Assembly: GCA_036821485.1 (NCBI GenBank)
Contig: DAISJM010000005.1
Span: forward strand, 16,815-80,814
Length of the DNA stretch: 64,000 bases
Reading direction: 5' to 3'
From: Verrucomicrobiota bacterium
Lineage (GTDB): Bacteria > Verrucomicrobiota > Kiritimatiellia > CAIQIC01 > JAGNIJ01
A program made the position numbers and the translations under genes. This document shows, piece after piece, positions 6,314 to 59,800 of this stretch. Position 1 is the first letter of the stretch. Every line of letters starts with the position of its first letter. Under the pieces are notes generated by a model. That model worked only from the letters and a program-made list of their open reading frames with translations, searched no databases and was not told the DNA's origin.

Positions 6314-6389
6314 TGGTGGCTGGAGTCGGAATCGAACCGACGACCCAGGGCTTATGAGTCCCTTGCTCTGCCAACTGAGCTATCCAGCC
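6314..6389 (-). tRNA. tRNA-Met (anticodon CAT), elongator type
   Basis: The reverse complement folds as a 76-nt cloverleaf: acceptor GGCTGGA/TCCAGCC, D-arm GCTC-AGTTGGCA-GAGC, anticodon loop CTCATAA (CAT), T-arm GTCGG-TTCGATT-CCGAC, 3' ACCA encoded. G1-C72 is paired, so it is not an initiator. tRNA-Ile2 (lysidine) cannot be excluded. Confidence 0.85.
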
Positions 6390-8187: not shown

Positions 8188-11100
8188 TCAATTCTTCTGA
8201 AGTTCCTGCTGGGCGGTATAGCGCAGGCGGACGGCATCATCGCTGGTGAGCTCGCCCGACTTGGCCAGGCTGGGGACGGCGGCATAGACGAAATCGGCCA
8301 ACTGTTCGCGGGTCCAGCCCTTCTTCTCCTGCAGCAGGCGCAGGTATTCGATATCCTGCAGGGCGCGACGCAGGGTCTTCAGCCGGAGCGATGCATAGGG
8401 TTTGTCCTGGTTCGCGGGCATGCCGCAGTAGAACAGCGACTGCGGACTCCCGCGGAGCCAATGTTCGGGAAGACCGATGGTCTCGCGGATGCTCCATCCG
8501 TCCGCGCCTTCGCAGAAGCCGGCGAGAGCCGTGGCTTCGACATCCAGCGGGGTCCGGCCCAGCGGTGCGCCTTCCGTCATCAGCCACAGCGTTTCGTCGG
8601 ATAATTTCTGCCGTTCACGCAGGCGCTGCCACGACAGGGGATCGGTATCGCTCACCGTCAGCAGGGAGAAAACGCCGATGCCGTAGTTGCCGATCAGACT
8701 CCCGTCGGGGACCGTGACGCGGAAGACAAACTTGTTCTTGGGCCATGCCGAGGCATCCGATGCGGCGACCAAGGCATAGGATTCCAAGGCCATGAAGTCG
8801 TCACGGAACAGAGGCTCACCAAGAAACCATGGCGGTGCCTTGCCCTTGTACGCGGTGGTCGGGACGTTGTTCAGCCAGAGATGCGCTGCGGTGGTGGACC
8901 AACCGCGGGATCTCAGATGCTCGCGAAACTTCTGGAGCGACGAACGGAAAGCCCGCCAGTAGTTGTTGTCGAGGCAGCTATAGATGCCCTCGGCAGGTCC
9001 GCTGAACACCTTGCATCCCGAGGGGGTGATGACTTCCTGATCCGTGCAGAGAAATCCGTCGAGCAGTGAGGCCGGCCAATTCTCGAAGAGCGGAAGAATA
9101 AAATGCGAGGCGGGTTCGCTGCCTTGGTCCAGGCCGCTGAATACGGAGCCGTCGATCACCCCTGCGTATCGATCGTCCCACGCCTGCCACGAGGGGATGG
9201 TGAGGTCGACGCCCTTTCCTGCGACGCGCGGGGCGAAAGGTTCCGTTACCTCACCATTCCTCTGATAGGGCAGCACGGCCATGGTGCAGAGGTGCTCGCG
9301 AGCCATGCGGTAGTAGGCCTGTTCAACGGGCAGGGCGTCATCCCTGTTCATCGCATCCTTCTTGTAGAGGAGCGCGAGCGACGGTGGTGCAAGAAGTTCC
9401 GCGGTGAATTCCGGTCTCGGCAGCGTGATGGGCAGGACTTCGAGATTCACATTCAGTTCGCTGGAGGTTCCGTCATCGCGGGTGATCTGGATGGGGCCGC
9501 GATAGACGCCCGGTGCGGTGGACGCGGGTATGTACAATTCAGCCAGCACGGATTGGCACGTTTGATTCGGCAGCCGATTGGGCAGCGCGGAGAGGGTCAT
9601 ACTTCCGGAGAGTGGAAGCAGAAGGTCGGCCGTCCAAATGCCGCCATCCGCCGGTGTGGTGGTGTGCGTATACCACGCCCGGTAGAAACGGAAGCCGACA
9701 CCCGGCATGCCGCTCTTCCCCGCTTGGAGCGGCTGCGCGGAGAATTTGAGCGTGGGGAAATCGGCTCCTTTCTTCACCAGGGAAATGATGAAACTGACGG
9801 TCTCATTTCGCGCAGCGCGAAGCCGAATGGTGCGGGAGGTGCGGTCCCATATATGAGACGAGGTCAGCGGTGCGCGGGCACGCGTTGCGTCGGCGTAGGC
9901 GCCGTTGATTGGGTCCACAGCGGCGGTCTCGTCGATGACCTGGAGACCGAGGGCGTTGGCGGCCACATCGATCGGTGCCGCGTCATACGTGTCGAGCTTG
10001 GCGGTCTCGGGCAGGGAGAGCAACTGGGGCGTGCGCACGGTTACTTCATTGAATGGGCCGGCCTGACCTGCTTCGTCGACGGCGCGAACGAAGAAGATGT
10101 AGGACATGTCGGGCTCAAGCTCATCGACGATCATCTGATCCTTCTGGCCGCCGGGTTGCGGGAACGGGATCAGGTTGCGCGGCATGTCCTGTGCGCGATC
10201 GGCGGTGTTCGGGGCCAGGGCCCAGCGCACGTCGTAACGGAAAGCTTGTCCCTCCTTGCCGTCGTCGCCCGGCGCGGTCCATGTGAGGAGAATGCCCACG
10301 CGGTCTCGCCGACGGAGGGACGGATGCGCATAGGCGCAGAGGTCCGACACATCACCGGGTGGCGCCATATCGATGAGGGCACCCTCGACTTCCAGATAGT
10401 GGCTGTTTTCCGCATCCTCGCGGCTGGCCACGGAGAGGGGTGCGTCGAGCTGCCCCTTGGCGTCCGTGATGGCCACGCCGTAGGCGGCATCGGCGACAAG
10501 AGCTTGGATCACGATGGGGTCGAGCGAGATGGATATCCAACCGTCAGCGTTGGTGGATGTCGAACCGAGTTCGCCGAACGCGGTGATGGAGCCGCCATTT
10601 CCGCGGATGACGTGAGGCAATGACGCGCCGTCTTGTCGCCAGGGCCGGTTGCCATAGTTCGCCCAGCGGAAGGTAGCGCCGGCGGTGGTCATGTCCTGCG
10701 TTGTGCCCTTGCCTTCGTCCCATGGCGTGGGAAGTGTGCTGAAGCCGAGGGCACGGCCCCGCCCGGATTTCACTTTGGCGTTCCACGTTGCGCGGTTGAT
10801 GGTCCATCCGCGGATTCGGCTGATGTCAAATTGGGCCAGCACCATGGAATCGTTGCCCTGCAGGAGCAGTTCCGTGGCGGCGCCGACATTGTGATCTTCG
10901 TTTCGCGAGACGGATGTGTCTGCGACCGGCGTCAGGCGCGCCTGTTTGAGGTGGGCGCGCTCAATATAGCCGGGCGACCAGACCGTGGGCCGTGGCGGTT
11001 TGATGTCCGGTACGGTTGATGTGTCGGGCGCCGGCGATGCGGGAGCCGGTGCAGCCGTCGGGGCTGATGTGGTGGAAACAGGGGTGGCGACCTTGGGTGC

Positions 11101-49561: not shown

Positions 49562-52036
49562 GTGGCAGAGCACGAGGCCATCGACGTCATAGCCGATCAG
49601 GTAGAGAAAATCGCCTGTCGCAAGTGCGGTCGTCACCTCGACGTCTCCAAGCTGCCGATGTTCTCCAAGGTCGAGTGTCCCGACTGCAAAACCCAGCAAA
49701 CCGTTCCCGCGCGTCTCGGCCAATTTCTGCTTCTTGAAGTGCTCGGCGCGGGCGGCATGGGCGCTGTGTACCAGGCACTCGATCAATCGCTGGGCCGCTA
49801 TGTGGCCATCAAGGTGATGCGGCGCGCGATGGGCGAGGATCCGGCGTTCGTCGAGAATTTCATGCGCGAAGCGCGCGCAGCGGCGGCATTGAATCATCGC
49901 AACGTGGTGCAGATCTATTCCTGCGGGCAGGAAAAGGGTCAGCCGTACATCGTGATGGAACTCGTTTCCGGTGGCCGGCTTGACGAGATGATTGCCCAGG
50001 GCAATCCGATCGAGGAAGTGCGCGCCCTGGAAATCGGCATCGATGTGACGGAAGGTCTGAAGGCGGCCAATGACGTGGGGCTGATCCACGGCGACGTGAA
50101 GCCGGCCAACATTCTTTTCGACAAGAACGGCATTGCGAAGGTGGCAGACTTTGGCCTGGCGCGGTTCGTCGCATGGCAGCAGGACCGCGGGGAGGTATGG
50201 GGCACGCCGTATTACATCGCGCCGGAAAAGGCGCGCGGCCAGAAGGTCGATCATCGGTCCGATATCTACAGCCTCGGGGCGACGCTGTATCACGCTCTCG
50301 GCGCGAAGCCGCCGTTTGACGGCAAGACCGCGACGGATGTGGTGCTGGCGCGTTTGAAGAATCCGGCCATCGGTCTCCGCGTGATTCGTCCCTCGCTTCA
50401 GCCGGAGACGGCCGATGTGATCGCGCGCACGTTGGAATCAGATCCCTTCATGCGCTATCCGACGTACTCATCACTGCTGGCGGATCTTCGCGAAGCGCTT
50501 CGCGTGGCGAAGCAGGAGCAGCGCTCTGTCCACACGAAGGTGAAGAAATCGCCGACGGGTCCAGTGGTGGCCATCGTGCTGATGCTGCTGGCGGCACTGG
50601 CGATTGTCATCGGCAGTCTGCAGTGGACCAGCGGGCGGAAGGAAAAGGCGAAGGAAAAGGCTGGCGAGACGGTTGCGCCCGCCGTGACCAACGCACAGGA
50701 AGCAGCCCAGGTGACCACGGGCGAGCAGGAAAACGTGCAGGCCCAGGCCCAGAAGGTGGCGGCCATTGTTCAGCCCTTCACGCCGGCGCATGAGCAGGCG
50801 CTCAACGAAGCCGTGGCGCAGTTGGTCCGCGGAAATCCCACGGCGATGCGCGATCAATTGCAGGATTTGTACGACAAATCGTCAGCGATCGGTATGGGGC
50901 GGTTCTGGATCCGTCTTTTCCAGGCGGTGGCGTGCTGGGCGGGGCAGCGCGATCAGGATGCCGTGATCTATCTTCAGGAGGTGCGCAACGCGTTGTTCGA
51001 GTCGCCGGATCCGTCGCGGCCGCATCCCGGCAACATGCCGCAGACGCTGGCCAAGCTGATGCTCAAGCAGGTGGATGAGGGGGCCGTATCCTTCGAGGCG
51101 GCGCGCCGACCGCCTTGGTATGGGGATTTCGCCGAGTTCTACCTTGGGCTGGATTTCCTGCGCGAGGGCAACGTGAAACGGGCCAAGGATTTCTTCAGCT
51201 CCTATCTCTCCAAGCAGGGCAAGGATCCGACATGGCCCTACAGCTTCCAGCCCATTGCAAAAATGTGTGTGGAACAGATTGATGAGTTCGCACAGGTCCA
51301 GGACAAGGCAGCCCAACTCATTGCCAACAAGCAGGCCGCGAAGGCCCGCGCGTTGCTCGAGGAGTTCCGGTTCAAATCGAGCGCGCTGATGTTCCCCTTG
51401 GCGGAATTGGCGCTTACGCGCGTCAAGGCCGCCGAGTCGAAGGAATTGGAAGAGCAGCGCCGGGCGGATCGGATTGCCCACCGCGAATTGGTGCAGGTGG
51501 ACTTGGATCGCATCGAGGAGGTTCGCACCGCAAACCTCCCGTTTGTGGCGCAGAAAGATTTCCGGAAAGCCAGCGCGGCGCTGTCCAAGGTGTTGTCTGA
51601 ACTGAAGACCAGCGAGGGTCAGCAGACCTACATGGGCCTTCGGGAGATGTACGACCGGATGGATGGATTGAAGCGTTTTCTGATCACGCGGATTTCAGCG
51701 TCTCCCTATCGCGGCGGGGCAAGGACGGAGTTGGGTGGTGACGCCGTCGGCGCCGACTTAAATGGCATTCGCGTGGCGCTGGGCTCGCATGGCGAGATGG
51801 TTCTGCCGTGGCCGGAAATCAGCCCCCGCTTGCTGGCGCAACTGTTCGGTTATTATGTCACCGACACGTCGTTGTCGGATGCGGACCGGGCAGACGAGAA
51901 TCTCTCCATGGCCGTCTTCTGCTACGAGACGACGGCCTTCCGTGCGGCCGCCCAGTACGCGGAACAGGCGGTCAAGCTGGACCCTGCCATCAAGGTCAAA
52001 GTTCGCCGGCTGATGCCGAGCCTCCTGCCGGACTGA
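49562..52036 (+). CDS. Membrane-anchored Hanks-type Ser/Thr protein kinase with N-terminal zinc ribbon and large extracytoplasmic C-terminal domain
   Basis: Zinc ribbon CRKCGRHLDV...CPDCKTQ. Kinase motifs GAGGMGAVY, AIKVM, HGDVKPANILF, DFG and APE. TM VVAIVLMLLAALAIVIGSL. The ~460-aa C-terminal domain is helical/TPR-like. Confidence 0.85.
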   Translation: MAEHEAIDVIADQVEKIACRKCGRHLDVSKLPMFSKVECPDCKTQQTVPARLGQFLLLEVLGAGGMGAVYQALDQSLGRYVAIKVMRRAMGEDPAFVENFMREARAAAALNHRNVVQIYSCGQEKGQPYIVMELVSGGRLDEMIAQGNPIEEVRALEIGIDVTEGLKAANDVGLIHGDVKPANILFDKNGIAKVADFGLARFVAWQQDRGEVWGTPYYIAPEKARGQKVDHRSDIYSLGATLYHALGAKPPFDGKTATDVVLARLKNPAIGLRVIRPSLQPETADVIARTLESDPFMRYPTYSSLLADLREALRVAKQEQRSVHTKVKKSPTGPVVAIVLMLLAALAIVIGSLQWTSGRKEKAKEKAGETVAPAVTNAQEAAQVTTGEQENVQAQAQKVAAIVQPFTPAHEQALNEAVAQLVRGNPTAMRDQLQDLYDKSSAIGMGRFWIRLFQAVACWAGQRDQDAVIYLQEVRNALFESPDPSRPHPGNMPQTLAKLMLKQVDEGAVSFEAARRPPWYGDFAEFYLGLDFLREGNVKRAKDFFSSYLSKQGKDPTWPYSFQPIAKMCVEQIDEFAQVQDKAAQLIANKQAAKARALLEEFRFKSSALMFPLAELALTRVKAAESKELEEQRRADRIAHRELVQVDLDRIEEVRTANLPFVAQKDFRKASAALSKVLSELKTSEGQQTYMGLREMYDRMDGLKRFLITRISASPYRGGARTELGGDAVGADLNGIRVALGSHGEMVLPWPEISPRLLAQLFGYYVTDTSLSDADRADENLSMAVFCYETTAFRAAAQYAEQAVKLDPAIKVKVRRLMPSLLPD

Positions 52037-52049
52037 AGCCCCTCTTTCC

Positions 52050-52778
52050 CTACGCCTTCCGACCGGGATAGCCCTTCGGCACGTTGATCTGTTCCACGGG
52101 CAGCTTGCGCAGGCACATGAACCAGTCGAGACACTCGTAGTCCTTGCCCGCGTTGTCGACACGATCCTTGGCGGTGCCGCAGGAGCCGGGCGGAGGGATG
52201 ATGACCGGGTCACCGGGTTCCCAGTCGGCCGGCGTGGCGCATTGCTGCGCATCCGAGGTCTGCATGGCAATGAGCAGCCGGAGCACTTCGTGGAAATTAC
52301 GACCATTGGACAGCGGGTAGTAGACGAGCGCCCGAATCTTGCTCTTCGGATCGATGAAGAAGACGGCGCGCACGGCCTTGGTATCGGCTGCCGCGGGTTG
52401 GAGCATGCCGTATGCGCGGGCGACGTCCATCTTGAGATCCGCGATGACGGGGAAGGTCACCTCCATGTTCGACATGCCCTTGTACGTGATCTTCTCCTTG
52501 ATCGTGCGGAGCCAGGCGATATGGCTGTAGGTACTGTCGATGGAGAGACCGACAAGTTTGCAGTTCAGCGCCTCGAACTCCGGCATGAGCTTGGCGAATG
52601 TCATGAACTCTGTCGTACAGACAGGCGTGAAGTCCGCCGGGTGGCTGAAGAGAATCACCCACTTGCCTTTGTAATCGGCAGGAAAGTTGATGATGCCCTG
52701 CGTGGTTTCCGCAGTGAACGACGGGGCGTCCTCGCCGATCAGGGGAATGCGCGTTGATGGTGTTTGTACCGTATCCAT
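52050..52778 (-). CDS. Peroxiredoxin (1-Cys Prx / Prx6-like subfamily) with C-terminal extension
   Basis: Peroxidatic-Cys motif FTPVCTTE within a thioredoxin fold, plus a ~40-aa Cys-containing C-terminal extension. Confidence 0.85.
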   Translation of the reverse strand: MDTVQTPSTRIPLIGEDAPSFTAETTQGIINFPADYKGKWVILFSHPADFTPVCTTEFMTFAKLMPEFEALNCKLVGLSIDSTYSHIAWLRTIKEKITYKGMSNMEVTFPVIADLKMDVARAYGMLQPAAADTKAVRAVFFIDPKSKIRALVYYPLSNGRNFHEVLRLLIAMQTSDAQQCATPADWEPGDPVIIPPPGSCGTAKDRVDNAGKDYECLDWFMCLRKLPVEQINVPKGYPGRKA

Positions 52779-52869
52779 TTTATCTCCTCCTTGTGGCGGC
52801 AGCCGAACGCCGCCATGCGTTCAATAGACACCATCCCCGGTGTTTTGCAAGGGGGCGACGGAAGGAAAT

Positions 52870-53607
52870 CTAGCGGGCAGGATTGGAGCTGATGACGCGT
52901 TCGTCGTACGTGGCAAACACGCCCTGGCCGGGTTGGACCACGAGAAACTCGGAATCGCTCCAGGGTCCGTCGATGAGCCGTTGGATGAGCCCCATATCGC
53001 CACGGATCTTCTGGAACGGCCAGTGGTGCTCGTCGGCCTCCTGGGTGGCCATGCGCTCAAAGCGATCGTCAGGCTCCGCGCCGGTTTCGATGTAGACCAG
53101 GCTGGAGCAGCGATGCGCGGCCGGCCCGAGCAGGTCAAGAATCTGCCGGGCGTTGTCTGCGCCGTAACGCGCTGCGAGTTCTTCATAACGGCGGTCGAAA
53201 CCGAGTCTCATGGCGGCGGTTTCTTTCCCCGCGGCCGGCCGGTGCTCGAGCCAGCCACTCGTCCGGTAGATGGCGCCACGGTGCGCGTCGTAGAAATCCT
53301 GGCAGCCAGCGGCGTTGCCGAAGAAGATCGAGATGCAGTCGTGTGCGCGGGGAACGACCAGCGGTATTTCACGCGCCTGAAGTCCGGCGACGCTGTTACC
53401 GCACAGGCCGTAGCCGAGCACGACGCTGTCATGCCTGGATGCATCCGCCCCATCGATGATGTTCTGAATCTTGCCGCGCAGGACCGAACGTTCCTCGTCG
53501 TGGAGGCTCATGGGCAGAAACTCGAGATCGATTTGGTTGTGCGAGCGGGCTGCGGCGGCCTGCATCTCGCGGGTCAGGACTTCGCAACTGATGACCTTAA
53601 GCCTCAT
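52870..53607 (-). CDS. DUF1638-like protein (family usually adjacent to MtaC-type corrinoid proteins)
   Basis: 245 aa. Assignment is by overall similarity to DUF1638 and by its position immediately downstream of a B12-binding protein. No catalytic motif known. Confidence 0.5.
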   Translation of the reverse strand: MRLKVISCEVLTREMQAAAARSHNQIDLEFLPMSLHDEERSVLRGKIQNIIDGADASRHDSVVLGYGLCGNSVAGLQAREIPLVVPRAHDCISIFFGNAAGCQDFYDAHRGAIYRTSGWLEHRPAAGKETAAMRLGFDRRYEELAARYGADNARQILDLLGPAAHRCSSLVYIETGAEPDDRFERMATQEADEHHWPFQKIRGDMGLIQRLIDGPWSDSEFLVVQPGQGVFATYDERVISSNPAR

Positions 53608-53616
53608 GGGGGTTCC

Positions 53617-54252
53617 TCATGCCTTATCGTTCACGGACGGCATCAGTGTGTCAAGCAGGCGCACCGCCTCGAATGCGTCGGCGCCGTAGGTTGCACCGGA
53701 GCTGCGCGCAAAATCGGCCGTGACGGCCGCTCCGCCGACGAGGACGATAAGTTCGGGGCGGCCGGCGAAGTGGTACACCAGCTCGCGCAGGTTCTTCATC
53801 CCATTGGTCATCAACGCGCTGCACAGTACGGCCCGGCAGCCGCCGCGGACGGCCTCTTCATATTGCTCGATGGTGCAATCGTCGCCGAGGTCCTGCACGT
53901 CGTAACCCGCGGCGCGGAGCACGAGGGCGACGATGTTCTTGCCGATGGTGTGATGCTCGCCGCGGACGGTGCCGATGCACACGCGGGGCCTGGAGCGGCT
54001 GTGAGGGGTGGTCATCGAGGGTTCGAGAATCGCCAGTCCGGCCTGCATGGCCCGCGCGCCGACAAGCAGGTCGGGCACACCGAGTTCTTTCCGGGAAAAC
54101 CGGGAGCCCAGTTCATACATGGCAGGAATCATGGTCTCGTTCAGCAGAAGCTTGGGGTCGGCGCCGGTCGCCAGGGCGTCGTGCGCGGCGGCCTCCGTGG
54201 CGCTGCGGTCTCCAACAAGTATGGCCTCGTACAGCTTGTCCTGTCTTGGCAT
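53617..54252 (-). CDS. Corrinoid (cobalamin)-binding protein, MtaC/MtbC-like (B12-binding_2 helical cap + Rossmann B12-binding domain)
   Basis: Helical cap (LYEAILVGD...LLVGARAMQAGLAIL) then RVCIGTVRGEHHTIGKNIVALVLRAAGYDV (an ExHxxG variant of DxHxxG), ...LCSALMT..., ...LIVLVGGAAVT. Start M at 54252 (ORF extends to 54339). Confidence 0.7.
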   Translation of the reverse strand: MPRQDKLYEAILVGDRSATEAAAHDALATGADPKLLLNETMIPAMYELGSRFSRKELGVPDLLVGARAMQAGLAILEPSMTTPHSRSRPRVCIGTVRGEHHTIGKNIVALVLRAAGYDVQDLGDDCTIEQYEEAVRGGCRAVLCSALMTNGMKNLRELVYHFAGRPELIVLVGGAAVTADFARSSGATYGADAFEAVRLLDTLMPSVNDKA

Positions 54253-54283
54253 GCCAACTCCCCCTTGCTTGTCGCCGGGCCCG

Positions 54284-56737
54284 TCAGATGAAAAGCGTTG
54301 TTCCCGACTGATCGGCCTCGGAAAGAAACGAAGCCACACCGCCCAGATCGATGCCGTCGATGAGCTCTTCCCGGTGGAGGCCCATCACATCCATGGACAT
54401 CGTGCAGGCGACGAGTTTCACGCCTGCCTTGCGCGCGGATTCGATGAGCGACGGCAGGCTGTCGACCTGCTTCTGTTTCATCACGTGCTTCATCATCATC
54501 GTGCCGAGTCCGAGCATGTTCATCTTGGAAAGTTTCAGGGCGGCCGCTCCGCGCGGCATCATCATGCCGAACATGCGATCGAGCAGCGGTTTGTTCGTTG
54601 GCGAGGGGTTGCTCTTGCGCAAAGCGTTCAAGCCCCAGAAGGTGAAGAACATGGTGACTGCGCTGCCCATGGCGGCGGCGCCATTGGCGATAACGAATGC
54701 GGCAAGAACCTTATCGAGGTCGCCGGAGAACACGACCATGGACTTCTTGGTCGGGCCGGTGGAGGCAGTTGAGGCGCCGGTCGGGCATGGGCTGCCCTTG
54801 CGGATGTGCGCCTCAACGCGCGAGCCGTTTTGGCGAATGTCGATGAGCGTGTGGCCGTTGCTGAGACACCATGCCGGCGCATCGGTCAGGAAGCCGGGAT
54901 CGCTGGCGCACACGGAGAGTTCGTCGCCCACGTTCATGCCCTGGACGGCTTCCTTCAGGCGCATGATGGGGCCGGGGCATTGCAGGCCGCAGCAATCGAG
55001 TTCCACGGTGCGGCCGGTTGGCGCGGCGGTCTCGGCCATCTTCTCCTCGGCGTAAGCGAGGAACGGCGGGCTCTGGGTCTGGCTGCAGACGGCGCCGCCG
55101 TGATACGAGCAGAACGTGGAGGAGCCGCCCGCGAGGGTGAGGACTTGTCCAAACCCACGCTGGAGAAGCAGTCGGTAGGCGAGGTAGCTGCGGAACCCGA
55201 CTTTGCAGTAGACGAAGAGGGGACGATCCTTGGGCAGTTCCGCGACGCGCTGGCGCAGCTCACCCAGCGGAATGTTGATGGCGCCTGGAATGTGCCAGAT
55301 GTCGAATTCCACTTTGCCGCGGACGTCGATCAGCACGCCCCCCTCCGTCTTGGCGGGGTAATCCTCGGCGTACCAGAAGCGGATATCGCCGCGCAGAAGA
55401 TTAGCGGCGATGAAGCCGGACATGTTGACCGGATCCTTGGCCGAGCCGTAGGGCGGTGCATAGGCGAGTTCAAGATTTTCCAGATCGTATACGGTCAGCT
55501 TCGCGCGAAGAGCCGTGGCGAATACATCCAGGCGCTTGTCCACGCCGTCGAAGCCGACGACCTGGGCTCCGAGCAGACGGCCTGTGTCGGGGGCGAAGAG
55601 GACCTTGATGTGCAGTGGTGCCGTGCCGGGGTAGTAGCCGGCATGGCCGGACGGATGCAGGTAGACCTTGTGATAAGGTATCTTCAGCTTCAGCAGTTGC
55701 TTTTCTGACGCGCCGGTGCCGCCCGCCGTCATCGTGAAGACTTTCACGATGGCCGTGCCCTGCGTGGACGAGTAGGTGGTCTTACGTCCGCAGATGTTTT
55801 CCGCCGCGATGCGTCCTTGACGGTTGGCCGGACCGGCCAACGGGATGACCCATGAGTCCGGCAGGACTTCGTGCGAGACTTCGACCACGTCACCTGCGGC
55901 GTAGATGTGCGGGTCCGAGGTCCGCATATGTTCGTCCACGCGGACGCCGCCACGTGGTCCAAGTTCCAGGCCTGCTGCGCGGGCGAGGGTGGTTTCCGGG
56001 CGGACGCCTGCAGCAAGGATCACAAAGTCGGCCGTGACCACCTCAAGGTTCTTCAACTCCACGGCGACTTTCCCGCCCGTTGCATCGCGAAACGCAGCGG
56101 CGGCGGTCCCGAGATGAAACCGTATGCCGTGCTGTTCCATGTGGGTCTGAAGGTCGCGGACCATCTCGCGGTCCAGCGGGGGCATGATCTGGTCGAGCAT
56201 CTCGACGAGGTCGACGGTCAGGCCCCGCTCCCTCAGGCTCTCTGCCATCTCAACCCCGATGTAGCCACCGCCGATCACGACCGCACTCTTGGCGCTGCCA
56301 TCGACCATGGCTTTGATTTGGTCCATGTCTTCGATATTGCGCAGGACACATACGCGGGGATGGTTGATGCCGGGCAGGTCGGGCTTCAACGGGATGGCAC
56401 CCGGACAGAACACAAGCTTGTCGTATGTCTCATCATACTCGCGGCCGGAAGCGAGTTCGCGAATGCGCACGCGTTGGGCCTTGCGGTCGATGGAGAGCAC
56501 CTCGTGACCGGTACGGACATCGAGATTCAGCGAGGCCTTGAGGCTTTCCGGTGTCTGGAGGAGAAGCTGCTCGCGGTTCTTGATGTCGCCGCCGATATGG
56601 TAGGGCAGGCCACAGTTGGCAAAGGAGACGTAGTTGCTCTTCTCGAGCATGATGATCTCCGCGCGTTCGTCCAACCGCCGCGCCCTTGCCGCTGCCGATG
56701 CGCCGCCTGCCACTCCGCCAATGACCACGATCTTCAT
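54284..56737 (-). CDS. Four-domain sulfur-trafficking oxidoreductase: CoA-disulfide/persulfide reductase (FAD/NAD(P)H) + rhodanese + TusA + DsrE/DsrF-like
   Basis: 817 aa. FAD motif KIVVIGGVAGGASAA, CoADR Cys in SFANCGLPY, NAD site VVIGGGYIGVEMA. Rhodanese (...LFVYCKVGFRS...). TusA CPxP motif CCGLQCPGPIMRLKEA. C-terminal DsrE-like (VVFSGDLDKVLAAFVIANGAA...KLVACTMSMDVMG). Confidence 0.8.
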   Translation of the reverse strand: MKIVVIGGVAGGASAAARARRLDERAEIIMLEKSNYVSFANCGLPYHIGGDIKNREQLLLQTPESLKASLNLDVRTGHEVLSIDRKAQRVRIRELASGREYDETYDKLVFCPGAIPLKPDLPGINHPRVCVLRNIEDMDQIKAMVDGSAKSAVVIGGGYIGVEMAESLRERGLTVDLVEMLDQIMPPLDREMVRDLQTHMEQHGIRFHLGTAAAAFRDATGGKVAVELKNLEVVTADFVILAAGVRPETTLARAAGLELGPRGGVRVDEHMRTSDPHIYAAGDVVEVSHEVLPDSWVIPLAGPANRQGRIAAENICGRKTTYSSTQGTAIVKVFTMTAGGTGASEKQLLKLKIPYHKVYLHPSGHAGYYPGTAPLHIKVLFAPDTGRLLGAQVVGFDGVDKRLDVFATALRAKLTVYDLENLELAYAPPYGSAKDPVNMSGFIAANLLRGDIRFWYAEDYPAKTEGGVLIDVRGKVEFDIWHIPGAINIPLGELRQRVAELPKDRPLFVYCKVGFRSYLAYRLLLQRGFGQVLTLAGGSSTFCSYHGGAVCSQTQSPPFLAYAEEKMAETAAPTGRTVELDCCGLQCPGPIMRLKEAVQGMNVGDELSVCASDPGFLTDAPAWCLSNGHTLIDIRQNGSRVEAHIRKGSPCPTGASTASTGPTKKSMVVFSGDLDKVLAAFVIANGAAAMGSAVTMFFTFWGLNALRKSNPSPTNKPLLDRMFGMMMPRGAAALKLSKMNMLGLGTMMMKHVMKQKQVDSLPSLIESARKAGVKLVACTMSMDVMGLHREELIDGIDLGGVASFLSEADQSGTTLFI

Positions 56738-56868
56738 GTAACCATCCTTGGTAAAATGATGCCCCGCCGATGTGGCAAGACCCCGCCAGAATACTCCCCT
56801 GAAGATGCCTCAACAAACGCGTTTTTCAATGGGCGGTGGCCGAATGTCGGACGGCGAGAATCCAAACC

Positions 56869-59800
56869 TTAGGGGAAAGTGACGCGTGAACGGTAGTAGG
56901 ACGATGCGGGCTGGTTGCTGACGGAGATGGTGATGACGGAGTTGTCGCCCGCCAGGTTGGTGCGGAAGAGGGTCCAGTCGCCCAGGCTGATGTTGGTCCG
57001 CCAATAGATGTTGTAGAGACGGTTGGAGACCGAGCCGAACTGGAGCACGGCCGCGGTATTGGAGCGGCCGGCCTCGATGGCAAAGAAGGACAGACCGTTG
57101 GTCGGTATGGTGCCGGCGACGTATTCGGCGTAGTTGTTGAAGCCGTCGTTGTCCGGATCGGCGTCGGATGTGGCATTCGTGGCTCCGCTGAAGTAGGCCG
57201 ATTCCCACGTGTCCGGCAACCCGTCGCCGTCCAAATCGCCACTGCAGGCGGTGATGAACTGCCCGGCGTTGAGGGCGCCCATGGACATATCGTTGGTGGG
57301 TCCGGCCCAGACAAACTGGGCATACGATGAGCCCGTGCCACGCAGTTGAAGCGACTTGTTTGTTTCGTTGCCGGTTTCCATTACGCCGAGGTCGACGGCG
57401 GTCATGCCTGCGGCGGGGCCATTGGTCGCGGTCATCACGCCCTCATAACTGAGGAACTGGACGACCTGTCCGCTGTGCACGAGCGCGACGGCATCGGACG
57501 GCCCGTTCTGGAGACCAGCCATCGCAAACCAGAGGGCGCCGTAGCCGCATCCCTCGTCGTCGATGGTGCCGGAGATGGCATTGCTGGCGTAGTAGGCCCC
57601 GTTACCGCCGTTGTAGGCGAGGAGGTAGTAGGCGCCCAAGTCGGTTCCTGCGGGGCCGGCGACTTCGACACCTTCGTTGGAGTCGGTGCTGGCATTGTCG
57701 TAGTGGATCTCGTTAATCCAGACCGATGATGTGACGGCGGAATTCACGGTGATCACGATCTCTTCCCAATCGACGCCGTCATCGCCGACGGCCCAGAAGA
57801 GGCTGGTATAGGCGCCGAGGGGCGAGGCGTTGGCCCACGTGAACGTTCCGGCGCCGTTGGTGGTGCCGAACGTGGAGCCGGCCGGGGCGTTGCTGACGGA
57901 AAGGGTGATGGGTTCGCCGTCGATATCCGTGGCGGTGACCGAGAACTGCAGCGTGTTGTTCAGGATGACGGAGCGGTTGCCGATGGCTTGTAGGACCGGC
58001 GGATTCGTGGCTGTGTCGAGGACGCGGAGGACGACGGCCTCGCTGTCCGCGCCGTCCTTATCCGCCGCGTAGAACAGGGAGGTGTAAATGCCGACGGGGG
58101 CGGCGTTGGACCAGGTGAACGTGCCATTGGTGCCGGTGGCGGAGAACTGTGCACCCGCGGGCAGATTGCTGGCGGTCAGGGTCACCGTATCGCCGTCGTG
58201 TTCGGTGGCGGTCACCGTGAAGGTCAGGAGATTGCTCAGGGCCACGTCGCGGTTGCCAATGAGGAATAGGAACGGCGGCTGGTCGGTGGTTCCGCCGCAG
58301 GGATAAATCCACTGCGATGCGTTCAGCGTGTCGCGCGATGCAACATTCGTGGCGGCGCTCCAGACAAACTGCACGTAGCTGGTGCCGACGCCGGACAGTT
58401 GCAGCGAGTTGCCGACGGGCGTCGTGGTGGTTTCCGCGACGTTCAGTTTCTCCGCCGTTACGCCTGCAGCAGGGCCGTTGGATGCGATGACGGTCGCGCC
58501 ATAGCTGACAAACTGAACGAGATTGCTGCCCAGTTCAACCAGGGCGACGCCGTCCGGCCCGTTTTGGAGGCCGGTCATGGGTACCCACACTGCGCCATAG
58601 CCGCATCCCTCGTCGTCGATCGTGCCGGCGAGTGCATTACTCATGTATTGCAGACCGTCGGCGCCGTTGTAGGCGATCAACGAGAAGAGGCTGAGGTCCG
58701 TGCCGGCGGTACCCGCGACTTCGACGCCTTCGTTGGTGTCGGTGCTGGTGTTGTCGTAGTGGAGTTCGTTGATCCAGATGGAGCCGTTGAGCAACACGCG
58801 GAGGATGGCGGGCTGGGACACCGCGCCATCATTGTCCACCGCGTAGAAGCGTGCGGTATAGACGCCGACAGGCGTAGCGTTGGTCCATGTGAACGTGCCG
58901 CTGGCCCCGGACGAGTTGAACGAGGCACCGGCTGGAGCATTGCTCATGCTGAGCGTGATGGCATCGCCATCGGCATCGGTGGCGGTCACGGGGAACGTCA
59001 GCGTGCCGCCGGCTTTCACGTACGCGGTGCCAAAGGGCGCCATCACAGGCAGGTTGGTTGGCGCCATGACGTAGAAGCGGACTATTTCGGAATCCACACC
59101 GTGTATGTCGGAGGCGTAGAAGCGGGACGTGTAGACCCCGACAGGCGTCGGATTGGCCCAGGTGAACGTGCCGTTGCCGTTGGTGGAGGTGAAGGTTGAT
59201 CCGGCGGGTGCATTGCTGATCGTGAGGGTGATCGGATCGCCCTCTGCATCGGTCGCCGTGACGTCGAAAGTCAGCAGATGAGATTCGATCACGGACTTGT
59301 TGCCGATCGTCTGGAGCACAGGCGGTTCGGTCCCCGTCAGGACGCTGATGCGGATGATTTCCCAATCCGTGCCGTCCTTGTCTGCCGCGTAGACGGTACA
59401 GGTGTAGACGCCGACGGGGGTGGGGGTGGTCCAAGTGAATGTGCCGGTGCCGTTGGTAGTGCCGAATGTGGAGCCTGCGGGTGCGTTGCTGATACTGAGC
59501 GTGATGGCGTCGCTGTCGACGTCCCATGCCGCGACCGAGAAGCTGAGCAGATTGCTTTGCACCACGGATTTGTCGCCGATGGCCGACAACACGGGCGGCT
59601 GGTTGGAGCCCTCGCCGCACGGGAAGACGACTTGGCGGCTATTCATAGAACCGCGTGATGGGGCATTGGTCGGGCCGCCCCATGCGAACTGCGTGTAGTT
59701 GGTGCCGACGCCCGTCAGTTGCAGGGAGCGATCCACTTCGGTGCCGGCCTCGGCAACGCCGATGTCCGTGGACGAGAGTTCGATCGCAGGGCCGTCGATG

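Follow-up and report, generated by a model that had tools for sequence, protein, structure and literature searches.

The gene pair considered here, encoding a cobalamin-binding (corrinoid) protein and a DUF1638 protein, has its closest described counterparts in marine bacteria. In Phaeobacter inhibens, a DUF1638 gene lies directly 3' of a B12-cap/B12-binding gene (PGA1_c13350/c13340) of a three-part split methionine synthase (PMC5764234). A DUF1638 mutant of this organism is a methionine auxotroph, for which the authors did not offer a mechanism, and the phylogenetic distribution of the protein mirrors that of the RamA-like DUF4445 activase (PMC5764234). In Ruegeria pomeroyi, methionine synthesis and the demethylation of glycine betaine share a single carrier, MtgC, and the pterin-binding, homocysteine-binding and RamA genes are found at other loci (PMC12478193). 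Genetic evidence from these abundant marine bacteria shows that B12-dependent methionine synthesis and the demethylation of glycine betaine both depend on DUF1638, with no mechanism assigned (PMC5764234, PMC12478193). We analysed a homologous pair in a 64-kb stretch of DNA (the window; 62% GC) from a Kiritimatiellia metagenome-assembled genome, where the pair is preceded by the gene for a large fusion protein with CoADR, rhodanese, TusA and DsrE2 domains. The proteins of the window are identical to NCBI entries HPF98962-HPF98985, encoded on a contig of 264,751 bp. The same contig is present in several ENA, JGI and Logan assemblies and is found in anaerobic-digester samples.

The fusion protein recalls a second group of described enzymes, the CoA persulfide reductase CoAPR and the related Npsr, whose biochemistry has been reported (PMC9405070, PMC7969121, PMC6026696); in CoAPR, C42 and C508 are both needed for catalysis (PMC9405070). 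Two components of the locus are of kinds already known, one being the corrinoid carrier together with DUF1638 and the other a persulfide reductase of the CoAPR/Npsr type that bears sulfur-carrier domains. The novelty lies in a monophyletic subfamily of carrier and DUF1638 that has swapped the methyltransferase/RACo neighbourhood for an operon of ArsR, thioredoxin, persulfide reductase and peroxiredoxin genes. To our knowledge, a corrinoid protein and DUF1638 inside a reactive-sulfur operon have not previously been described, and the literature on DUF1638 known to us is sparse.

The corrinoid protein and its DUF1638 partner

A preliminary description of this DNA had proposed three genes, for the fusion, the corrinoid protein and DUF1638. 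ORF calling and Pfam searches place all three on the minus strand where they had been drawn (Table 1) and confirm each of the proposed domains (B12-binding, B12-binding_2, DUF1638, Pyr_redox_2, Rhodanese, TusA and DsrE). The corrinoid protein consists of an N-terminal helical cap (B12-binding_2, PF02607; 63.7 bits, residues 4-77) and a Rossmann B12-binding domain (PF02310; 69.4 bits, residues 90-197), as in methyltransferase-cognate carriers. Its best PDB matches are MttC (7xcn_M), a Moorella protein (1y80), MetH and MtaC. Its scores against four specific NCBIfam models fall below the respective cut-offs: MtgC_2 (128.7 bits against 370), TIGR02370 (122.6 against 215.3), MtbC (99.4 against 350) and MtaC (85.8 against 420).

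The base-off/His-on motif is kept, with ExHxxG (GEHHTIG), SAL (CSALMT) and GG (LVGGAAV) elements, and the lower-ligand motif reads GTVRGEHHTIGKN where the canonical form is GTVKGDLHDIGKN. The Asp of this motif is replaced by Glu in the clade of the window, whereas other members of the subfamily retain Asp. Immediately before the cobalt-ligating His, all subfamily members have a polar residue (R, Q or H, as in GDRHD, GDQHD and GEHHT), compared to Leu or Val in canonical carriers.

Neighbour-joining analysis of the 99 B12 proteins encoded at all fetched loci places the window protein together with those of L005, L090, L094, L096, L097, L098, L099, L104 and L121. This subfamily is monophyletic, and no methyltransferase or RACo gene occurs in the context of any member; its sister clade comprises carriers adjoining RACo, URO-D or Pterin_bind genes. 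A hidden Markov model (HMM) of the subfamily scores the window protein at 350 bits, compared to 169 bits for an HMM of carriers from methyltransferase clusters, and the margin exceeds 100 bits for subfamily members. The two groups are about 40% identical and differ beside the ligand (ExHH/DRH versus DLH).

The DUF1638 protein is recognised far above the Pfam cut-off (PF07796; 106.9 bits against 27). The residues C8, H36/D37, C69 and H89-D90-C91 are invariant, being conserved in 21 sequences and in L094. DUF1638 has no PDB relative by sequence. In a structure model, the invariant Cys and His residues lie in loops after beta-strands 1-4, at the C-terminal edge of the beta-sheet, which would be the place of active or metal sites in such folds. 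Homology searches with DUF1638 returned two close relatives (84% and 77% identity), after which identity falls to 51%. In the DUF1638 tree, the proteins paired with the B12 subfamily form long basal branches apart from the methyltransferase-associated DUF1638 clade. From their sequences, the corrinoid protein and its partner look like a co-diverged offshoot of the known carrier/accessory pair.

The fusion, the corrinoid protein and DUF1638 are all under purifying selection (dN/dS 0.09-0.15, 0.19-0.28 and 0.11-0.23, respectively). The combined range of 0.11-0.28 for the last two rules out that they are decaying passengers.

The cluster and its neighbours among relatives

The fusion-B12-DUF1638 block recurs in L005, L090/L091, L094/L095 and L096, with different flanking genes. 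In the close relatives L005/L006 and L090/L091, the spacing is the same as in the window. The former (77% relative) has no peroxiredoxin (Prx); the contigs of the latter stop inside or just 3' of DUF1638, so that the presence of Prx cannot be assessed there. More distantly, in Verrucomicrobia bacterium A1 (L094/L095; GCA_017973875.1; B12 proteins 55-58% identical in the B12-protein search), the order is ArsR, DUF6132, thioredoxin (Trx; WCGPC), Zn_ribbon_8, fusion, B12 and DUF1638, followed by a convergent kinase. The L096 locus runs from the C-terminus of the fusion through B12, DUF1638 and Prx (78% identical to that of the window) to a convergent kinase.

Two other variants lack the fusion. 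The P0281 context has ArsR, a small protein, Trx, B12 and DUF1638, and L099, a 1.9-kb metagenome contig, has Trx, a Zn-ribbon, B12 and DUF1638. At L121, genes for a DUF6132-like protein, YgaP-TM and a Zn-ribbon are followed by AhpD-like and LamG genes on the opposite strand and then by B12, with no DUF1638. The B12 gene of L098 stands alone beside the kinase, with neither DUF1638 nor redox genes, and that of L097 likewise has neither DUF1638 nor redox neighbours. As a separate observation, the L099 B12 gene carries an in-frame TAG (1074-1076) in place of the H, E or D of its homologues; sequencing error, pseudogene formation and recoding are all conceivable.

The preliminary description had left room for the three genes being unlinked in every related genome. 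Instead, the block is kept between the window and L094 down to 55% identity in the B12 protein and 41% in DUF1638, with 71% in the kinase and 74% in the fusion. The 5' flanks are P-II and AcrB in the window versus VIT1 and bactofilin in L094, and beyond the kinase LGT and RluD in the window face unrelated genes in L094. Since the flanks have changed on both sides, the block has survived rearrangement, and its recurrence in L094/L095 and L096 with other flanks rules out chance juxtaposition. The convergent kinase adjoins the cluster in L005, L094, L096 and L098 and adjoins the fusion in L092, and no other syntenic neighbour of the B12 gene persists as consistently across lineages.

The genes are tightly coupled: only 31 and 9 nt separate the three in the window, the DUF1638 TTG start overlaps the B12 stop codon in L094, and DUF1638 and Prx overlap by 4 nt in L096. 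The fusion/B12 gap of 31 nt, one less than originally given, is too short for a terminator, so fusion and B12 are likely co-transcribed; judging from the gene arrangement, this likely extends to DUF1638. The fusion had also been described as the only co-oriented partner of the pair. This does not hold, as Prx 3' of DUF1638 and three small upstream genes have the same orientation. These upstream genes (DUF6132-like, YgaP-like_TM and Zn_ribbon_8) are the same cluster members as those of the relatives, split from the fusion by a gene with LTD domains. The full cluster can be reconstructed as ArsR, DUF6132, thioredoxin or YgaP-TM, Zn-ribbon, in some variants the CoADR-Rhd-TusA-DsrE2 fusion, corrinoid protein, DUF1638 and, in some, 1-Cys Prx. 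Fusion, B12 and DUF1638 form the 3' half of this cluster, which is confined to a single Kiritimatiellia clade; every conserved context belongs to one bacterial class.

The fusion itself combines Pyr_redox_2 (218 bits), Pyr_redox_dim (48), Rhodanese (62.8; residues 467-542), TusA (69.5) and DrsE_2 (198.8) domains. Residues 2-542 match 3nta (Npsr; 562 bits), 3icr (CoADR-RHD) and 8a56 (CoAPR) end to end, at 488-562 bits, and residues 664-817 match the DsrE structure 3pnx. All catalytic cysteines are kept: C42 (SFANCGLPY), C511 (FVYCKVGFRS), C583/C587 (CCGLQCPGP) and C778 (DsrE2). Scores are below the CoADR equivalog cut-offs (TIGR03385, 477.3 against 578.8; NF007123, 381 against 458). We predict that the protein is a persulfide or polysulfide reductase that uses NAD(P)H and FAD, belongs to the CoADR-RHD/Npsr/CoAPR type and bears TusA and DsrE2 domains as sulfur carriers. 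No characterised member of the full fusion architecture was found. In the 77% relative L005, the fusion appears as two pieces (669 and 93 aa), but splitting or decay was ruled out because a run of N in a scaffold gap separates them and the same-species L006 is continuous.

The 815-aa architecture is common, with more than 100 full-length homologues (65-74% identity) in Kiritimatiellia, Lentisphaerota and Verrucomicrobia. In L092 (fusion 74%), the fusion is followed by a convergent CBM20-esterase and kinase and then by LGT and RluD, which is the backbone of the window without B12 and DUF1638. The fusions of L093 and L179 (72%) have other neighbours and no B12 gene nearby. In GCA_964610105.1, the fusion (L179) and DUF1638 (L081) are unlinked, on different contigs, and that DUF1638 is flanked by ATP-cone/PRK and aldo/keto reductase genes. 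The fusion is therefore an ordinary, widespread stand-alone enzyme and not an obligatory partner in the cluster, being absent from two cluster variants, widespread alone and unlinked from DUF1638 in one genome. Its earlier casting as the specific partner of the pair is unsupported, as two variants without it keep Trx, with or without a Zn-ribbon, directly before B12 and DUF1638. The broader thiol/persulfide theme of that description is strengthened by the ArsR, thioredoxin, DUF6132, YgaP-like TM, Zn-ribbon and peroxiredoxin genes, whereas its suggestion that the fusion stands in for MtaA found no support; the fusion shows no methyltransferase feature.

We surveyed 80 DUF1638 loci from Planctomycetota, Acidobacteriota, Chloroflexota and Chthonomonadales (43-50% identity), clustering all neighbours within 10 kb, naming the clusters by Pfam and counting them by HMM. 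Just over half of the loci (51/80) have a methyltransferase neighbour of some kind: URO-D at 49, homocysteine S-methyltransferase at 26 and Pterin_bind at 6. A B12 protein is found at 26 loci and Fer2-RACo at 24. Such methyltransferase-rich neighbourhoods indicate that the pair derives from corrinoid methyltransferase systems. Three loci (L023, L054 and L085) have B12, DUF1638 and RACo without a methyltransferase, and in 24 of the 80 DUF1638 is an orphan with none of these neighbours; in this family, it is normal for a carrier locus to have no methyltransferase. A CoADR-like gene is found at a single locus (L038), which approximates chance expectation. Together with the L092, L093 and L179 fusions, which have neither B12 nor DUF1638, this rules out a general link between fusion and DUF1638.

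In the 64-kb window, Pfam searches of the other ORFs and custom HMMs run on all stop-to-stop ORFs found no URO-D, S-methyl_trans, Pterin_bind, MTTB or MtaB gene and no RACo/DUF4445 (RamA-type activase) gene. Stand-alone homocysteine-binding (PF02574) and pterin-binding (PF00809) subunits were not found in the window either. The absence of a cognate methyltransferase, as first proposed, thus stands for the window and eight related contexts. As a claim about the genome it does not; the homologous pair of Phaeobacter and Ruegeria works with subunits encoded at other loci (PMC5764234, PMC12478193). The data are those of the window and related loci, and the absence holds for the neighbourhood rather than the genome.

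The survey also yielded several observations on DUF1638 loci in their own right. At L038 (Planctomycetales), a canonical B12-DUF1638-URO-D ... RACo operon is separated by 1.6 kb from a divergent ArsR-rhodanese-CoADR-RHD unit (L038, 5040-7627 and 9262-15101; L027, 653-5604). This is a second, independent case of a persulfide reductase-type gene close to DUF1638, and is compatible with chance. L008 (6781-9760) and L010 (1416-4386) have ArsR (HTH_5), a SAM-dependent methyltransferase, DUF1638 and URO-D, with no B12 protein nearby; the L008 contig stops 138 bp after URO-D, leaving the downstream region unseen. In the Chthonomonadales loci L013 (2842-16649) and L048 (1299-16685), 8-9 URO-D paralogues surround one DUF1638, one homocysteine methyltransferase and one RACo, and these arrays look like multi-substrate corrinoid methyltransferase islands. 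Finally, L142, L147-L152, L154, L156 and L167 carry ORFs of about 590 aa that join a B12-binding region to URO-D (at about 8850-10630 in the 20-kb loci), a fused, MtsB/MtsA-like corrinoid/methyltransferase. Wherever the upstream region is present, which is the case for all but L147, whose contig starts inside the ORF, the opposite strand carries a homocysteine methyltransferase gene.

Explanations for the carrier in a thiol-redox cluster

We ranked four explanations: a carrier acting in trans, then a new thiol-linked function, then hitch-hiking, then a sensor. The first, which we favour tentatively and would stop short of calling probable, is that a clade-specific thiol/persulfide-stress operon recruited a diverged carrier/DUF1638 pair that still serves methyltransferases encoded elsewhere. 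The role of the cluster would be in thiol, persulfide and peroxide stress. From its homologues Npsr and CoAPR, the fusion would be expected to act as an NAD(P)H-dependent CoA-persulfide/polysulfide reductase, with the rhodanese, TusA and DsrE2 domains handing sulfane sulfur to the C42/CoA site for release as H2S. The ancestral pair would have been the methyl carrier and a maintenance or loading factor of split B12-dependent methyltransferases of the split methionine synthase/MtgBCDE type. In this clade, the pair would have left the methyltransferase/RACo neighbourhood and come to be co-transcribed with thiol-redox enzymes. It most likely would still carry methyl groups for methyltransferase subunits in trans, probably of the methionine synthase type, and its co-expression with redox genes may reflect the sensitivity to oxidants and sulfide of Co(I)/Co(II) corrinoids and of the DUF1638 Cys/His site, rather than any methyltransferase activity of the fusion. 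This reading draws on the unlinked subunits in Phaeobacter and Ruegeria, the B12-DUF1638-RACo modules and the 24 orphan DUF1638 loci.

Several observations weigh against it. No MT1/MT2 or RACo gene was found within 7-10 kb in any of eight subfamily contexts (the contexts examined for methyltransferase genes were L005, L090, L094, L096-L099, L121 and the P0281 context), so the trans partners are assumed rather than observed. The pair evolves faster than its neighbours, as seen in the identities between the window and L094, and the polar residue beside the His ligand would fit a changed function. Furthermore, a single ancestral arrangement is possible, which makes synteny weak evidence for any particular functional relation.

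The second explanation is a new thiol-linked cobalamin function, in which the diverged pair acts directly in sulfur chemistry with thioredoxin, fusion and peroxiredoxin and without classical MT1/MT2. Protein-bound cobalamin might react with sulfide, persulfide or thiols (scavenging, oxidation or methylation), or imported corrinoids might be processed or loaded in a thiol-dependent manner through Co-S chemistry at the DUF1638 Cys/His site. The B12 subfamily is never beside a methyltransferase or RACo and repeatedly has Trx, a Zn-ribbon or the fusion 5' and Prx 3', with rearranged flanks and with tiny spacers or gene overlaps; both partners diverge fast and in parallel, the position beside the His ligand is altered, and DUF1638 retains three invariant Cys and two invariant His in the loops at the beta-sheet edge. 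While these points agree with the proposal, they come from genomic context and sequence, and for each of fusion, Trx and Prx there is a variant that does without it. The L097 and L098 members have neither DUF1638 nor redox neighbours, and confinement to one clade is compatible with simple inheritance. The cap and Rossmann architecture and the (D/E)xHxxG...SxL...GG motif of methyl carriers are kept, with best scores to MtgC, MttC and MetH. In addition, NAD(P)H and thiols are too weak to reduce Co(II) to Co(I) without coupling to ATP or SAM, which counts against a thiol-linked role. We consider this explanation possible but unlikely. Its fullest form is doubtful: a monophyletic, fast-evolving pair in an ArsR-controlled thiol/persulfide-stress operon that would perform cobalamin chemistry on sulfur or thiols, or thiol-dependent corrinoid processing or loading, without MT1/MT2 or a RamA-type activase. 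If true, a B12 carrier protein would have a use not described before, and DUF1638 would receive its first biochemical assignment.

Simple hitch-hiking would require that a B12-DUF1638 cassette landed once, in the ancestor of the clade, in a variable spot between a housekeeping persulfide reductase gene and the convergent kinase, and that co-transcription is incidental. The slot 3' of the fusion does vary (CBM20-esterase in L092, B12-DUF1638 in L005, B12-DUF1638-Prx in the window), the fusion usually occurs alone and is unlinked from DUF1638 in GCA_964610105.1, and its near-chance frequency beside DUF1638 in other phyla (1/80) agrees with this. However, the block persists where both flanks have changed (L094 versus the window), B12-DUF1638 persists with Trx and a Zn-ribbon directly 5' where the fusion has been lost, and Prx overlaps DUF1638 by 4 nt in L096. 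Repeated neighbours from one functional class, thiol redox, are not expected under neutral insertion, and we regard hitch-hiking as improbable. A role of the stand-alone B12 protein as a cobalamin redox or light sensor (AerR/CarH-like) feeding ArsR or the neighbouring kinase is very improbable. The kinase is its most persistent neighbour, staying in L098 without DUF1638 or redox genes, and CarH-type proteins share the two-domain architecture, with weak matches to NCBIfam CarH (52.5 bits) and 5c8a (40.8 bits). Methyl-carrier corrinoid proteins score far better (128.7 and 108.7 bits), and a reading of the translation finds no Wx9EH motif, which we take to be the defining mark of CarH, in the cap region. 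The pairing with DUF1638, which elsewhere occurs in methyltransferase clusters, also argues against a sensor; moreover, convergent genes are not co-transcribed, and L092 has the kinase without any B12 gene.

The pair being wired into a thioredoxin/persulfide reductase/peroxiredoxin operon makes thiol- or redox-dependent cobalamin maintenance the thing to test, and the cluster is a compact gene set that offers a lead on DUF1638 function. Direct action of the pair on sulfur species, if true, would give B12 carriers a new role in anaerobes of sulfide-rich habitats. Since it is confined to one clade, the arrangement could also reflect co-regulation only.

Gene layout and comparison with described systems

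Table 1. Features of the cluster and adjoining genes (positions in the window)
Feature	Position	Strand	Basis or remark
DUF6132-like small membrane protein, 56 aa	62879..63049	-	GCRTGACP motif; first gene of conserved cluster
YgaP-like transmembrane domain protein (DUF2892 type), 78 aa	62638..62874	-	Pfam PF11127, 50.1 bits; CCGG at C-terminus
FmdB-type zinc ribbon with Cys-rich tail, 76 aa	62395..62625	-	Pfam Zn_ribbon_8, 57.9 bits
LTD/He_PIG/Exo_endo_phos surface protein, 1818 aa	56869..62325	-	Pfam families; between Zn-ribbon gene and fusion
CoADR-rhodanese-TusA-DsrE2 fusion, 817 aa	54284..56737	-	Pfam, NCBIfam and PDB matches
Fusion/B12 spacer, 31 nt	54253..54283	-	GGGGGAG Shine-Dalgarno; aligned with L005, L006 and L090
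Corrinoid (cobalamin-binding) protein 'B12sub', 211 aa from internal ATG	53617..54252	-	Pfam B12-binding_2 and B12-binding
DUF1638 protein, 245 aa	52870..53607	-	Pfam DUF1638, 106.9 bits
1-Cys peroxiredoxin, 242 aa, last co-oriented gene	52050..52778	-	Pfam AhpC-TSA and 1-cysPrx_C; PRK13189, 323 bits against cut-off of 211
Ser/Thr protein kinase, 824 aa	49562..52036	+	Pfam Pkinase; convergent with cluster

At the 5' end of the cluster (Table 1), the DUF6132-like protein scores slightly under the Pfam DUF6132 cut-off (20.7 bits). Its L094 homologue, which adjoins ArsR and Trx, scores 23.1 bits, and an HMM derived from L094 scores the window copy at 76 bits. The YgaP-like_TM gene was also called in L001, and the same gene occurs in the L121 cluster variant. 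Homologues of the Zn-ribbon lie directly 5' of the fusion in L094 and directly 5' of the B12 gene in L099. The 1818-aa protein is secreted and has repeated LTD and He_PIG/Ig-like modules and an Exo_endo_phos domain; its gene is also found in L090 but does not separate Zn-ribbon and fusion in L094. The gene appears to be a lineage-specific insertion and is probably not a functional part of the cluster. A terminator-like hairpin lies 3' of it (56781-56761). At the other end, Prx is separated from DUF1638 by 91 nt, within which it may have its own promoter. The kinase carries a Zn-ribbon at its N-terminus, and its large C-terminal domain matches no Pfam family. No regulator gene adjoins the cluster in the window.

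A scan of 51900-57100 found no sigma-70-like promoter, and terminator-like hairpins there are no commoner than in shuffled sequence, which makes the scan uninformative. Rfam scans of the window and eight related loci found no cobalamin or SAM riboswitch. A match to RF02819 (V_AS7, Vibrio antisense RNA AS7) at 56550-56718 (+) exceeds the gathering score (98.6 bits), as does a second match in L090 (6020-6188 (-), 94.1 bits). Both run antisense to the 5' region of the fusion gene that encodes FAD binding, and the family model appears to have picked up conserved coding sequence of a pyridine-nucleotide-disulfide oxidoreductase gene; we regard the window match as most likely an artefact. V_AS7 apart, the sole RNA-family match in the window is a tRNA gene at 6317-6389 (-) (RF00005, 66.5 bits). 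Shadow ORFs are typical of GC-rich DNA, and a 483-aa ORF at 52840-54291 (+), over the B12 and DUF1638 genes, was rejected as one (GC3 of 0.68, compared to about 0.8 in real genes).

Among described systems, reactive-sulfur detoxification operons under CstR or ArsR-family (BigR/SqrR-type) control resemble the cluster in the ArsR-family regulator that heads it in L094 and the P0281 context. They also have in common with it rhodanese, TusA, DsrE, a CoA-persulfide reductase-type enzyme, thioredoxin and a YgaP-like membrane domain, but no persulfide dioxygenase, SQR or TauE was seen at the cluster. The fusion aligns end to end (residues 2-542) with Npsr of Shewanella loihica (3nta), CoADR-RHD of B. 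anthracis (3icr) and CoAPR of E. faecalis (8a56). It shares with CoAPR the single redox Cys in SFxxCG, and its C42 and C511 correspond to the required C42 and C508 (PMC9405070); unlike these enzymes, it has additional TusA and DsrE2 domains and scores under the CoADR equivalog cut-off.

The corrinoid protein shares its two-domain architecture and (D/E)xHxxG...SxL...GG motif with the carriers of methylotrophic systems (MtaC, MtbC, MttC and MtgC), and in other phyla, DUF1638 homologues are found alongside genes for URO-D, homocysteine methyltransferase and RACo. In contrast to those systems, there is no nearby MT1, MT2 or RACo; the neighbours are ArsR, Trx, persulfide reductase and Prx, and the TIGR02370 score stays under its cut-off (122.6 against 215.3). 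The split methionine synthase/MtgBCDE systems of P. inhibens and R. pomeroyi are compared last. The window pair differs from theirs in sitting in a thiol-redox operon, with no homocysteine-, pterin- or RamA-type gene in 64 kb, and its carrier is a separate, faster-evolving subfamily far under the MtgC cut-off (128.7 against 370). MtgC_2 is nevertheless the best NCBIfam match of the window carrier, and the gene pair is the same, a B12-cap and B12-binding protein followed by a co-oriented DUF1638. Furthermore, the methyltransferase subunits and activase of P. inhibens and R. pomeroyi are also unlinked, which provides a precedent for a carrier locus without a methyltransferase.

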